Below are positions 1,425 through 15,422 of a stretch of DNA of 64,000 nt, piece by piece. Source of the DNA: a phage; assembly GCA_033580375.1 (NCBI GenBank), contig GCA_033580375.1_4527.1; one strand, written 5' to 3'. Position 1 is the stretch's first letter; each line of letters starts with the position of its first letter. The notes under the pieces were generated by a model. That model saw only the letters and a list, made by a program, of their open reading frames with translations, was not told the DNA's origin and searched no databases. The translations under genes were made by a program, and so were the position numbers.

Positions 1425-2593
1425 CAGTATTCCAACGTCCAGGATATCCTAACTTAAGCGTTAAATTATACCAAGATTATTCGGCTTGGCAAGAAAATAG
1501 ATATGTTGAACTCGCAGCAACAATAACAACTTTAACCATGCGAGATTCACTATATGGAAGAAATGAAGGGATTCTTCAATTTTATGACACTAAAAACATC
1601 CACACTAAAATGGATGGTAGACAGATAGTTCAAATCTCTGTTTCAAATTCAAACACACCTCTCCAAGTTAGAACTCGAATTTATGGATGTAGACATTATT
1701 CCGTGTCTGTGGACTCAAAAGGTGACAATATTATTGCAATTGAGCTTGGAACAATACATTCTATAGAGAACCTTAAATTTGGGCGACCATTCTTCCCAGA
1801 CGCAGGAGAATCTATACGTGAAATGTTAGGTGTCATATATAAAGACCGTACGTTAATTACTCCGCCAATAAACACTATTAATGCTTATGTTCCTGATATT
1901 CCTTGGACAAGCACATTTGATGATTATTTGGCATATGTCAGAGAATTAGGACTTGCCACAGCGAGTGATAAGTTCGTATTCGTATGGCAAGATATTTTAG
2001 GCGTAAACATGATTGACTACGATACTCTTATTGGCCAGGAAGGCATTAAGATGGTTGTAGGCGAGCCAAATACCGTAGGTCAGTATATTCAAGAGCTTGA
2101 GTATCCATTAGTATGGGATTTTACCTGGATGACTAAAGCTAACCAATTTACAAGAGACCCTATTAAAAACGCCACGGTATTCGCCCATTCATTTTTAGAT
2201 ACATCTATTCCGGTTATTGTTACAGGTGATGGTGATAATGCTATTCTTGTGTCAAGATCCGGCGGATATTCCGAAATGACCTATCGTAATGGATTTGAAG
2301 AAGCAAGTCGTCTTCAGACAATGGCTCAATATGACGGATATGCTAAATGCACTACTACAGGTAATTTTAACATAACGCCTGCTACTAAAATTATATTTGT
2401 TGACCAAAAGAACCAATTCAAATCCGAATTTTACGTAGATGAAGTTATTCATGAGTTATCAAATAACAACTCACAAACTCATCTGTACATGTTTACCAAC
2501 TCAATGGTGTTAGAACCTGTTAACCCAGTTAAGGTTAAAAATGAACTTAAATCTGATTCTACCTCTAAAGAAAATAATTCTACCACAGTCTAA
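1421..2593 (+). CDS. 27: baseplate hub subunit gp27
   Basis: 390-aa ORF, ATGA overlap with gene 51 stop; size and synteny match T4 gp27. Confidence 0.85.
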
Positions 2594-13668: not shown

Positions 13669-14037
13669 TTATGCAACTTTAATCCAATTGTCTAAATTTA
13701 AAACACCTTTGGCTTTCATTTTTTCGATCAGGTTATCTGCTGTAATGCGTCCATTTTGATACCATGTAACATCTTCAGAGTAACCAGTTTCTTCGTCAAC
13801 ATATGTTTCTGAACGAATTTTGCCGGTAATAATAGTTTTTAATTCGTATGTGTCACCTGTGAAAAAGTTTGCTAACACAATTTTCCAAGAGAAATCATTT
13901 GAAGGACCTTCAGGGGTCATACAACCTACGATCTCAAATTGCTCTTTGTATAACATCCACTGGAATTCTTTAATTTCGATAGCTTTATAACCGTCGTGGT
14001 CTTTACATTCGATGTATGAGTTCAGATTGATTTTCAT
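13669..14037 (-). CDS. hypothetical protein (CMTP-motif paralog B)
   Basis: 122-aa ORF, SD GGAGAATAAAATG. Confidence 0.6.
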   Translation of the reverse strand: MKINLNSYIECKDHDGYKAIEIKEFQWMLYKEQFEIVGCMTPEGPSNDFSWKIVLANFFTGDTYELKTIITGKIRSETYVDEETGYSEDVTWYQNGRITADNLIEKMKAKGVLNLDNWIKVA

Positions 14038-14079
14038 TTTATTCTCCAGATTGTTTTATTGATTAGGTGGTACAAGTCT

Positions 14080-14108
14080 ATAGTAACACATCCTACAGGA
14101 GAGTAAAC
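14080..14108 (-). promoter_or_regulatory. T4-type early promoter
   Basis: Minus strand GTTTAC-N17-TACTAT. Confidence 0.55.
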
Positions 14109-14144
14109 ATCTTTTTAAACTTTTTCTGCCCTAAACGCACAAAA

Positions 14145-14162
14145 GGGAGACCGAAGTCTCCC
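14145..14162 (-). terminator. intrinsic terminator
   Basis: GGGAGAC-UUCG-GUCUCCC then UUUUGUGCGUUUAGGGC on minus strand, downstream of the small basic ORF. Confidence 0.6.
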
Positions 14163-14167
14163 TAAAA

Positions 14168-14344
14168 TTATGCAACAACCTTTCCAAAACGAGAAGCATC
14201 ATCTCGAAGAACTGCACGTGCTCTGCGCATGATCTTCTCAACTGTTTGATTAATACGAGAGTTCGACCCACGCTTGTATCCAGCGCGTTTAGAATCACCG
14301 ACTTTCTTTTCAACTGCTTTCTTTGCTTTAGTTTGTTTTGCCAT
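14168..14344 (-). CDS. small lysine-rich basic protein (58 aa), not in ORF track
   Basis: ATG...TAA frame MAKQTKAKKAVEKKVGDSKRAGYKRGSNSRINQTVEKIMRRARAVLRDDASRFGKVVA ending just before the terminator; below the track length cutoff. Confidence 0.4.
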   Translation of the reverse strand: MAKQTKAKKAVEKKVGDSKRAGYKRGSNSRINQTVEKIMRRARAVLRDDASRFGKVVA

Positions 14345-14716
14345 TATAAATTCTCTTTAAATGAAAATGCAGGACTTATTGACATTGCCTGCTCAAGCCC
14401 TCAAGGGGAACATAGGTTTTTGGATATTTAACGACCAGGATAACCATAAACCCGTCATCATACCTTATAGCTCTTATCTGTTGCACACCGTTAGCTTAAA
14501 GGTTCCGGGTTCGATTTCTCGAGGATAAGATATATACTGATGGATATATAGGCCTTGAGGCGTACTCCCGATTAGCCATCACCTCGGGGTAGCATGCACT
14601 TACCGCTATAAGAACAACATTCAAGAGGTACACCGTAAAATTGTCGGGGCGGTACTTCTAAAACATACCGATTCGCAAATCGATAATCAGACAATTCGAC
14701 GGCTCCTCGATTTAAC
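14345..14716. other. ORF-free, relatively GC-rich island (candidate structured RNA or regulatory region)
   Basis: About 370 bp with stops in all minus frames, GC-richer than flanks, several short inverted repeats and a tRNA T-loop-like GGGTTCGATT. Confidence 0.3.
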
Positions 14717-14965
14717 TTACTTCAGGGTAATAACAAAATGACGAACTGCTTTACGAGCTGCTGAAGCCAGAGGCTTAGCATATTTCAATTCATCTTTCTG
14801 AGCCAGTACATCACGAAGATCGGCCTGTGCTGGATTCAGATGTTTGAAATATCGCAGGATTTCCAGTGCTTCGGCTTCAACATCAATTGACGCGCCGTAG
14901 TTTTCGTGGCCATTATTCCATGCATGGCGTTGCAGTTCAAGAGCGTGTTGTAATTGTTTAATCAT
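14717..14965 (-). CDS. rIII: rIII lysis inhibition accessory protein
   Basis: 82-aa ORF (same as T4 rIII), adjacent to gene 31. Confidence 0.7.
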   Translation of the reverse strand: MIKQLQHALELQRHAWNNGHENYGASIDVEAEALEILRYFKHLNPAQADLRDVLAQKDELKYAKPLASAARKAVRHFVITLK

Positions 14966-15081
14966 TTTAAATTCTCAATTCGAGATAATATTTAGTAGCC
15001 ACGTTCGTCTGAATTTCACCTTCTTTCGACAGGTCTCTCAGTTGTAGGCTACCGCTTAGAAGAGTGTTCTCTTCATATAGT

Positions 15082-15089
15082 TATTTATA
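15082..15089 (-). promoter_or_regulatory. T4-type late promoter (TATAAATA) upstream of rIII
   Basis: Minus strand TATAAATA immediately after gene 31 stop, about 115 nt upstream of rIII ATG. Confidence 0.45.
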
Positions 15090-15422
15090 TCACTTATAAA
15101 GACACGGAATAGCTTTATAGTGGCATGTTACGAATTTCTGTTTAATTTCTTTAGGTTGTTTAAGACCTAAAGCCACAAATGGATGTGGAACATTTCGAAT
15201 TTGTCCAACTGGTAGTGGAGTCAAATCACCGACTTCAACAAAACCTTCAGGAACATCAGGACCTACAGAATGAACTACACATAGTTCAGGAACTTCACCT
15301 TGAACACGTTTACCAATCACAAGTCCTGATTCGGTAACTTCTTCATCACCTGCTTGAGCGGGTTCAGAAACCAGAATGACATATTCACCAACAGCACGAA
15401 TTGGGAGTTGTACTTCAGACAT
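15090..15422 (-). CDS. 31: co-chaperonin gp31 (GroES-like)
   Basis: 110-aa ORF near-identical in pattern to T4 gp31 as recalled (MSEVQ...[16 protein letters not shown]...[11 protein letters not shown]). Confidence 0.9.

Follow-up and report, generated by a model that had tools for sequence, protein, structure and literature searches.

A structured RNA element between rIII and 30.9 in relatives of bacteriophage T4

Phage T4 encodes two small stable RNAs, RNAs C and D (species 1 and 2, rnaC/rnaD), which lie within the tRNA cluster and are matured along with the tRNAs. Here we describe a 152-nt element in a 64,000-nt stretch of phage DNA (GenBank assembly GCA_033580375.1, contig GCA_033580375.1_4527.1; the whole stretch is referred to as the window) that resembles these RNAs (119–139 nt) in being small, structured, encoded by T-even phages, and dispensable. 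It differs from them in that its covariance model (R1) matches nothing in the rnaC/rnaD region of T4; there was no match at E up to 1 over T4 positions 69000–74000, which include both genes, and homology with these RNAs was rejected. The element is on the minus strand in the gap between rIII and gene 30.9. Copies at this position are termed type A and copies found between uvsY and uvsW in other phages are termed type B. Comparative prediction of covarying motifs in phage intergenic regions has yielded 10,006 candidates (Fremin, Bhatt and Kyrpides 2023, PMC10690425). The element may be one of these, and the main text of that study names no T4-like rIII or uvsY motif. From the comparisons below we are confident that the element represents a real and new family of structured RNA that is uncatalogued in the libraries searched.

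A nine-helix fold on the minus strand

Copies of the element were gathered from IMG/VR, metagenomes, and GenBank and include a divergent copy from phage EcS1. The only significant covariance-model match in the 64 kb was at 14462–14613, with 177.8 bits (E = 2e-40) for R1 and 171.4 bits for a refined model, R2. The parts of the element are as follows.

14462–14613, minus strand: structured RNA element (covariance-model match), with the core from P0 to P0 at 14464–14612
14605–14612, minus strand: 5' strand of the closing stem P0, CUUAUAGC, pairs with 14464–14471
14464–14471, minus strand: 3' strand of the closing stem P0, GCUAUAAG, pairs with 14605–14612
14551–14604, minus strand: arm 1, made of P2 (GGU/GCC), an internal loop, P1.0, a bulged A, P1a, P1b, and a GAUG loop
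14531–14550, minus strand: P3 hairpin of 6 bp with an 8-nt loop, compensatory changes in 3 of 6 pairs
14472–14530, minus strand: arm 2, made of P4 (7 bp) enclosing a three-way junction with P5 (GAAA-capped) and P6
14479–14510, minus strand: almost invariant strand ACCCGGAACCUUUAAGCUAACGGUGUGCAACA, covering P6, its loop, and the P6-to-P4 joining strand

Nine helices are arranged around a four-way junction without gaps, and one of the arms contains a three-way junction. P0, P2, P3, and P4 join with zero unpaired nucleotides, making the four-way junction perfect, and the 3' strands of P4 and P0 are continuous. Across phages P0 retains 4–15 bp in 19 distinct stem variants that differ in sequence or length, and both sides change in all four modelled pairs. 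This variation with retained pairing indicates that the element is a self-contained folding unit, as would be expected of a stem that only closes an autonomous fold.

Similar changes were observed in the other helices. The helix formed by P1.0, which holds a bulged C, and P1a has both-side changes in 7 of 9 pairs, and P1b varies through G:U pairs. P3 occurs as UAUAUA/UAUAUA, UAUACA/UGUAUA, UAUUCA/UGAAUA, UAUGUA/UACAUA, and UAUAUG/CAUAUA. In arm 2, both sides change in 5 of 7 pairs of P4 and in all four pairs of P5, and a compensatory change from CCG/CGG to CUG/CAG in type B defines P6. The subfamilies differ in the hairpin loops of P1b, P3, and P5. The invariant nucleotides are those of the arm 1 internal loop, where a conserved AAGUGCAU lies opposite CUCAAG, and those of the arm 2 strand ACCCGGAMCC...GCUAACGGUGUGCAAC; the invariant strands of the element include GCUAACGGUGUGCAAC and AAGUGCAUG. 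Within arm 2, ACCCGGA and GCUAACGGUGUGCAACAG are the same in 23 of the 23 sequences of a plain MAFFT alignment (A3; type A phages plus Yersinia phage JC221), with three changed positions in the rest of type B, and the P6 loop between these two strings has a few more variable positions. A tertiary pairing between GCAU and GUGC, both sides of which are invariant, is possible. An H-type pseudoknot between GAGGYG and CGCCUC was considered and rejected. It is broken by sequences from Serratia and Erwinia phages, and the nested helices P1b and P1.0 covary instead.

Compensatory changes were visible by eye in the first alignment, which held 17 distinct copies, so that the cross-phage alignment proposed as a check in a first-pass annotation of this DNA did find covariation in the central block. 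To quantify this we used A3 with a 31-pair structure. Standard pairs filled 97.9% of pair cells and both sides had changed in 16 of the 31 pairs, compared to 2–5 in slid controls in which the 3' partners were moved by 1–3 columns. The observed measures were reached by none of 500 shuffles. Application of RNAalifold to A3 without a supplied structure returned the same helices plus P1.0 and P6, both of which had also been seen by inspection. R2, with 39 pairs, was then used to re-align 29 distinct sequences. Of the cells in this alignment, 99.1% pair; both-side changes occur in 26 of 39 pairs versus 3–6 in slid controls, and the covariation score is 0.478 versus 0.03–0.09. The R2 alignment is fitted to the model and therefore favours the structure, a bias from which the MAFFT-based test and the slid controls are free. 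Together, these comparisons establish the fold.

The alignments also establish the strand. The pair cells contain 39 G:U versus 2 A:C combinations, and 99.1% of cells are paired when the sequence is read as sense (minus) versus 95.8% as antisense (plus). This excess of G:U over A:C places the RNA on the minus strand, with the same polarity as the surrounding genes. The element is also non-coding. In no member is any of the six frames free of stop codons, and the member lengths of 149, 152, 153, 156, 157, 159, 160, and 161 nt differ by amounts that are not multiples of 3. Because of these stops and lengths, the 'hypothetical proteins' annotated over the element are artefacts.

Coding sequences (CDSs) in differing frames and strands have been annotated over the element in MZ234027, PP597396, PV425437, MN508817, and OL960580 (our loci L002, L022, L133, L023, and L134, respectively), and one record also places a 'rho-independent terminator' over it. 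These CDS and terminator annotations look like mis-annotations. In the record of Tequatrovirus SA21RB an intrinsic terminator is annotated over helix P1. We rejected this as an artefact; the P1 hairpin is followed by AGUACGCC, which is not a U-run. A terminator scan of 14000–15200 gave no terminator-like site.

Occurrence and constraint

To determine how widely the element occurs, we used a 150-nt block of it as a query, which matched 412 phage records, 396 of them over at least 80% of the block length. The whole gap between rIII and 30.9 as query matched 994 records in some part, and from the difference between 412 and 994 we conclude that more than half of the relatives, T4 included, lack the element. 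Nearly all of the matching records listed carry it at one place each, and two places were matched in a single rearranged genome. Among the genomes opened, type A copies lie between rIII and 30.9 in Jiaodavirus, Kanagawavirus, Moonvirus, Muldoonvirus, an Erwinia phage, and EcS1. Close relatives within Tequatrovirus and Mosigvirus show clean presence/absence differences.

A 38-nt BLAST match in Yersinia phage JC221 (genus unassigned) led to a full divergent copy, and with JC221 as bait we obtained the type B subfamily of 20 records, JC221 included, from Slopekvirus (including phiEap-3 and mtp5), Pseudotevenvirus (including GAP161 and Olmo), and related phages. Type B members score 84–107 bits with R1 and 117–130 bits with R2 (E of about 1e-23 to 1e-26). 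They lie between the convergent uvsY.-2 and uvsW.1 in the sense orientation of uvsY. A further 150–380 nt of non-coding sequence separates them from a hairpin that has a U-run, and the downstream side holds no gene. The element thus occupies two unrelated positions, with one copy per genome at either locus. T4 is occupied at neither. Its uvsW/uvsY.-2 gap is only 55 nt, and the model finds nothing in T4 from 100 to 150 kb, which covers both loci.

Two further observations concern individual copies. In Slopekvirus and JC221, a non-coding block of about 150–200 nt that includes GGCGUAAUCUUUUGCG...GGUGAUUGAUAAGAUACCUUCGA is conserved between the element and the terminator-like hairpin (L023 1555–1940, L135 ~1365–1560, and L136 ~1365–1590 in alignment A7, which has few distinct sequences). 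It may be a second structured domain or a second RNA. In Klebsiella phage vB_KpnM_17-11 (MW239157, L024) the element is split between 1493–1607 (+) and 1655–1788 (–). The 5' half keeps the normal orientation; the 3' half is on the other strand at a distance of about 90 nt, and the two part at the P3/P4 boundary. The arrangement reflects either a genuine inversion or a fault in the assembly.

The element changes more slowly than its neighbours. Identity to the window is 98.6% for the element in a Tequatrovirus compared to 84–92% for genes 31, rIII, and 30.9. In Klebsiella, Edwardsiella, and Citrobacter phages these values are 92–93% and 65–80%, and in Serratia and Erwinia phages 82–83% and 60–79%. 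Divergence of the element tracks the relatedness of the phages and is slower than that of the neighbouring genes, including gene 31, which encodes an essential co-chaperonin. Strong purifying selection combined with repeated loss fits this pattern better than a recent sweep of a selfish element.

The rIII/30.9 gap outside the element

The window comes from a T4-type coliphage that is near-identical to Escherichia phage phiC120 (genus Mosigvirus), with 100% identity over the gap of 372 nt and 98.8% over the surrounding 3.5 kb. The minus strand carries all genes here, and the flanks hold genes 31 and cd and the 30.8–30.x series in T4-like order. Pfam gave no model for gp30.9 and none for rIII. 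The features around the element are as follows.

15082–15089, minus strand: T4 late-promoter consensus TATAAATA, upstream of rIII and directly after gene 31
14717–14965, minus strand: rIII, 82 aa, upstream same-strand neighbour of the element
14614–14716, minus strand: spacer adjoining rIII, common to T4, with a terminator-like hairpin (14666–14685) and a U-rich tail (14657–14665)
14345–14461, minus strand: spacer adjoining 30.9, common to T4, with two hairpins and the 30.9 ribosome-binding region
14393–14411, minus strand: small hairpin GUUCCCCUUGAGGGCUUG, 3' of the element in the spacer adjoining 30.9
14369–14392, minus strand: hairpin GCAGG...CCUGC with a U-rich tail at 14359–14368
14168–14344, minus strand: gene 30.9, encoding a 58-aa basic protein, downstream same-strand neighbour of the element

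The first-pass annotation, made from the sequence alone, had singled out this gap as an ORF-free, GC-enriched island that might be a structured non-coding RNA, a degraded mobile-element footprint, or a regulatory hub. Its limits were correct, as 14345–14716 is exactly the intergenic interval between rIII and 30.9, and there are 4–10 stop codons per frame in all six frames of the gap. Enrichment in GC is real (42.2% in the gap and 45.4% in the central 152 nt, versus 37.7% in the window) but modest, with nearby 200-nt stretches reaching 47–48%. Strong support exists for the proposal of a structured non-coding RNA, but it covers only the central 152 nt (14462–14613) and comes from other evidence than was cited. 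One cited pairing, TCGAGGA with TCCTCGA 175 nt apart, is unsupported and has one arm inside helix P5 and the other in a spacer that cannot be aligned in Klebsiella, Edwardsiella, and Citrobacter phages. A T-loop-like string, GGGTTCGATT (14507–14516), lies on the antisense strand of the RNA; its complement, AAUCGAACCC, supplies the 3' strand of P5 and the 5' strand of P6. T4 was said to have protein-coding ORFs at the equivalent position, whereas its 30.9/rIII gap is 244 nt long and unannotated. In short, the earlier reading was right that the sequence is non-coding and structured, and wrong about the supporting details and the extent of the feature.

Alignment with T4 and Mosigvirus phage PhAPEC2 (gap of 263 nt) showed that the gap has three parts. 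The outer spacers, 14345–14461 and 14614–14716, are common to T4 and the middle is an insert, such that the window and Tequatrovirus CHD2BS1 have about 153 extra nucleotides in mid-gap in place of 2 nt in T4 and an unrelated filler of about 50 nt (L003 ~1650–1700) in PhAPEC2. A T4-like junction without the insert would join ...GAATGT to ATGATGACGGG... Judging from these alignments, the junction is a hotspot for insertion and deletion among close relatives. With the gap as a BLAST query, positions 127–261 are 90–95% identical in T4-like phages of Klebsiella, Raoultella, Enterobacter, Citrobacter, and Edwardsiella, and the flanking spacer of those phages gave no alignment. The term 'regulatory hub' may still serve as a description of the outer spacers with their hairpins and U-rich tails.

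The hairpin just 3' of rIII (14666–14685, minus strand) reads UAUCGAUU-UGCG-AAUCGGUA followed by AUGUUUUAG, and contains a short inverted repeat, CGATTCGCAAATCG (14670–14683), that had been noted in the first pass and proved to be a real hairpin. T4 has UAAUGAUU-UGCG-AAUCAUUA at the same place, which shows that the stem is preserved through compensatory changes; these are seen in the alignment with T4, PhAPEC2, and CHD2BS1. A simple terminator scan did not call this hairpin. It is probably a weak terminator or a processing hairpin for rIII.

The small hairpin, GUACCC-loop-GGGG(C/U)UUG, is found 3' of the element at both rIII/30.9 and uvsY/uvsW and also in T4, which lacks the element (L023 ~1590–1610, L133 ~2199–2216, L135, and T4 as L004). 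Its stem is constant and its loop variable (CUUGA, UUUGA, UCGA, UUGU, or GAAA). Farther downstream, the 30.9/30.8 spacer (14038–14167, minus strand) has a strong intrinsic terminator, GGGAGACUUCGGUCUCCC and then a U-run. This terminator accounts for weak Rfam matches to the terminator parts of PhrS and BSR0709; the weak matches from a 701-nt search corresponded to the terminator after 30.9 and a stretch inside rIII, both outside the element. The terminator is followed on its 3' side by a T4 early-promoter-like GTTTAC...TACTAT and then a GGAG-containing ribosome-binding site for 30.8. The region examined for its early promoter and for RegB in work on T4 is this 30.9/30.8 spacer and not the rIII/30.9 gap. 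Beyond 16359 (minus strand), adjoining cd, the phiC120 and PhAPEC2 records annotate a phospho-2-dehydro-3-deoxyheptonate aldolase (DAHP synthase) where T4 has cd.1. This may be an auxiliary metabolic gene.

To learn how the element might be transcribed, we examined the sequences upstream of it. The late-promoter motif TATAAATA is found 386–483 nt upstream of the element in seven of the seven type A phages checked, and is labelled as the late promoter of rIII in the SA21RB record. Late transcripts running through rIII into the element would probably arise from it. At the other locus, an (N)ATAAATA or TAAATA motif occurs 6–9 nt before every type B copy, and the motif and the terminator-like hairpin beyond the element give this locus the appearance of a late transcription unit of its own. 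A scan for sense sigma-70-type promoters, which does not cover T4 middle and late promoters, found none adjoining the element in either context.

Comparison with known RNA families and possible roles

We compared the element with described RNAs. Rfam 15 gave no match at gathering scores in the window or in five homologous loci, and nothing within the element at E up to 10, even in a 176-nt search with lax filters. An identity as a tRNA or pseudo-tRNA, which the first pass had suggested checking, was rejected; ARAGORN found no tRNA gene in the window, no Rfam tRNA or tmRNA model matched, and the T-loop-like string is antisense. Kinship with 16S rRNA or tmRNA was also rejected, as the short word matches were at chance level and unsupported by the Rfam models. 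Host origin or mimicry fared no better, with no blastn match in 5,426 Escherichia coli genomes and no match to a combined pattern in 185,579 GTDB genomes. A 16-mer scan of metagenome contigs gave 94 loci, of which only those re-finding the known T4-like element received model scores. The remaining loci stayed at or below 23 bits, roughly the score that the seeded exact match would give by itself, and were discarded as relatives. Matches to a 5'-arm pattern in GC-rich environmental viral contigs were coding sequence from the same genes sampled repeatedly. The idea that gp30.9 moves together with the element was dropped, as gp30.9 and the ORF that overlaps the copy in JC221 are unrelated. In the literature we found none of six diagnostic strings of the element and nothing relevant on an RNA at this locus in searches for rIII/30.9, T4-like structured RNAs, or Straboviridae non-coding RNA. 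Two 2026 preprints on mining of non-coding elements do not mention these phages.

The explanation we favour is that the element acts as an RNA in trans late in infection. At the rIII locus it would form the 3' portion of rIII transcripts, at least of those initiated at the upstream late promoter, and at uvsY/uvsW it would be its own late transcription unit ending at the terminator-like hairpin. Either released from the 3' region of rIII or uvsY transcripts or embedded in it, the RNA would bind a conserved macromolecule of host or phage through its invariant loops, and might in this way serve as a decoy or modulate the RNA or translation machinery. Because the element occurs in two contexts, one of them without a downstream gene, a context-independent RNA is favoured over a leader of 30.9. 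That it is conserved more strictly than the neighbouring co-chaperonin gene, which is essential, implies that its molecular partner is a precise one. For the explanation as a whole, which blends the reality of the family with the trans-acting mechanism, our confidence is moderate. A late trans-acting RNA with a putative conserved partner, taken by itself, is a tentative proposal that we rate at somewhat below an even chance. It is possible, but doubtful, that the element represents a new functional class, either a ribozyme or a late high-affinity aptamer or decoy whose invariant loops would capture a small-molecule signal or a host factor, such as a component of the anti-phage defence, RNA-decay, or translation machinery. 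Such a class would explain how the element could be conserved more strictly than gene 31 and yet be lost.

Several observations weigh against this explanation. Folding of the single sequence, another check raised in the first pass, gave energies no better than those of shuffled sequences on either strand (z = –0.48 and –1.12). The case rests on comparative evidence. The sequences compared are related by descent, which inflates the shuffle statistics but does not explain the contrast with the slid partners. Given that T4 and more than half of its relatives lack the element, any function must be accessory. We found no dedicated promoter or terminator adjoining the element at the rIII locus. In Citrobacter phage CF1 it begins 3 nt past the rIII stop codon, and with this spacing it would be transcribed there only together with rIII. 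The element could therefore be confined to a cis role within the mRNA. A start 6–7 nt past the late-promoter-like motif of type B would remove most of the 5' strand of P0.

We regard a cis-acting transcription element as unlikely. In one form it would be a riboswitch-type aptamer for 30.9 and beyond, and in the other an antitermination RNA directed at RNA polymerase, comparable to HK022 put or EAR, that lets the enzyme pass the hairpins and terminators downstream. The conserved, covarying domain is what an aptamer would look like, and the element is invariably sense-oriented, preceded by a gene that carries a promoter and followed by hairpins or terminators; the latter are the small conserved hairpin and a second stable hairpin before the 30.9 ribosome-binding site at the rIII locus, the strong terminator after 30.9, and the terminator-like hairpin with its U-run at uvsY/uvsW. 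RNA polymerase or a universal metabolite as partner would also explain the extreme constraint. However, there is no constant 5'-leader position, since about 400 genomes have the element upstream of 30.9 and 20 genomes have no downstream gene to regulate. As to an expression platform, T4, which lacks the element, has the downstream hairpins too, and we saw no conserved alternative pairing that would join the 3' strand of P0 or P4 to one of them. Between the element and 30.9 the spacer varies from about 70 to 150 nt, with or without an extra block of about 50 nt, and no Rfam riboswitch or antitermination RNA matches. A new class of catalytic RNA, self-cleaving or otherwise, which would process the polycistronic transcript 3' of rIII or uvsY in any context, seems quite improbable. 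Four-way-junction ribozymes do exist (hairpin, twister-sister), and the element likewise has a conserved core of junction and loops with peripheral parts (P1b, the P3 loop, and P5) that vary in length and sequence, a patchy accessory distribution over two unrelated intergenic contexts, and a P0 stem that insulates the fold from its flanks. Yet no Rfam ribozyme matches at E up to 10, no cleavage site can be deduced from the sequence, and only about 50 of 152 positions are both unpaired and conserved, which binding fits equally well.

Explanations that involve no RNA seem to account for very little even when combined. The GenBank view of one or more small protein-coding genes (CHD2BS1_176/177, COW86c_228, Olmo_16/17, and JC221_170) draws on ORFs of 36–45 codons that can be drawn across the element and that automated pipelines have annotated in some genomes. 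It is already contradicted by the six-frame stops of every member, by indels of 1, 2, 4, and more nucleotides, by differences in frame and strand of the annotated ORFs between genomes, and by substitutions that are paired across helices and show no codon periodicity, leaving it next to no probability. A feature at the DNA level, such as the footprint of a miniature mobile element, the scar of a homing endonuclease, or a recombination hotspot, with conservation reflecting recent horizontal spread, would be in line with the clean presence/absence differences among close Tequatrovirus and Mosigvirus genomes, the different filler of about 50 nt at the same site in PhAPEC2, and the inverted repeat that bounds the element. 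But there is one copy per genome and one match in the window, no target-site duplication is visible at the T4 junction, and the bounding repeat changes in sequence while its complementarity is kept. Divergence follows phylogeny from 98.6% in a coliphage through 92–93% (Klebsiella/Edwardsiella/Citrobacter) to 82–83% (Serratia/Erwinia), and the G:U asymmetry points to single-stranded RNA of one polarity. We therefore consider this explanation highly improbable. The mobile-element footprint raised in the first pass fails on the same grounds, namely the single copy, the lack of a visible target-site duplication, the covarying stem, and constraint above that of the neighbouring genes.

T4-type phages are well studied, yet about 400 relatives carry a nine-helix RNA of 150 nt that is outside both annotation and the RNA-family libraries. 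Some of the carriers have been put forward as therapeutic phages against E. coli, Klebsiella, Shigella, Enterobacter, and Yersinia. Should the element turn out to be a ribozyme, aptamer, or decoy, the known accessory functions of phages would gain an RNA-based tool. T4, which lacks it, provides a natural knock-out background. The spurious 'hypothetical proteins' and 'terminator' over the element in several GenBank records need correction. The catalogue of Fremin et al. (2023, PMC10690425) assigns no function or curated family to such a motif.

Comparison with other known systems shows partial likeness. The element resembles the putL and putR RNAs of HK022 and the Bacillus EAR RNA as a structured RNA embedded in a phage genome or operon, in sense orientation between a promoter and terminators, and those RNAs bind a highly conserved host machine. 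The put RNAs differ in being double hairpins of about 70 nt with no resemblance to the element in sequence or structure that we could see, and read-through at uvsY/uvsW would give only RNA antisense to uvsW.1 and uvsW. The SAM-I and cobalamin riboswitches and the hairpin and twister-sister ribozymes share with it a compact four-way-junction fold in which internal loops and junctions are conserved and peripheral hairpins vary. Unlike these, the element has no Rfam score at E up to 10 and no consistent downstream gene or expression platform. Phage tRNAs differ from the element, which is 150 nt long, has a junction without linker nucleotides, and lacks the signatures of the D-loop, T-loop, and anticodon loop. 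They are like it in having a closing stem and three arms on a four-way junction, and their genes are likewise accessory, patchy in distribution, and far more conserved than neighbouring protein genes. Phage tRNAs and the stable RNAs of T4 are accessory yet nearly invariant because their partners are invariant, and the same may apply by analogy to the element.

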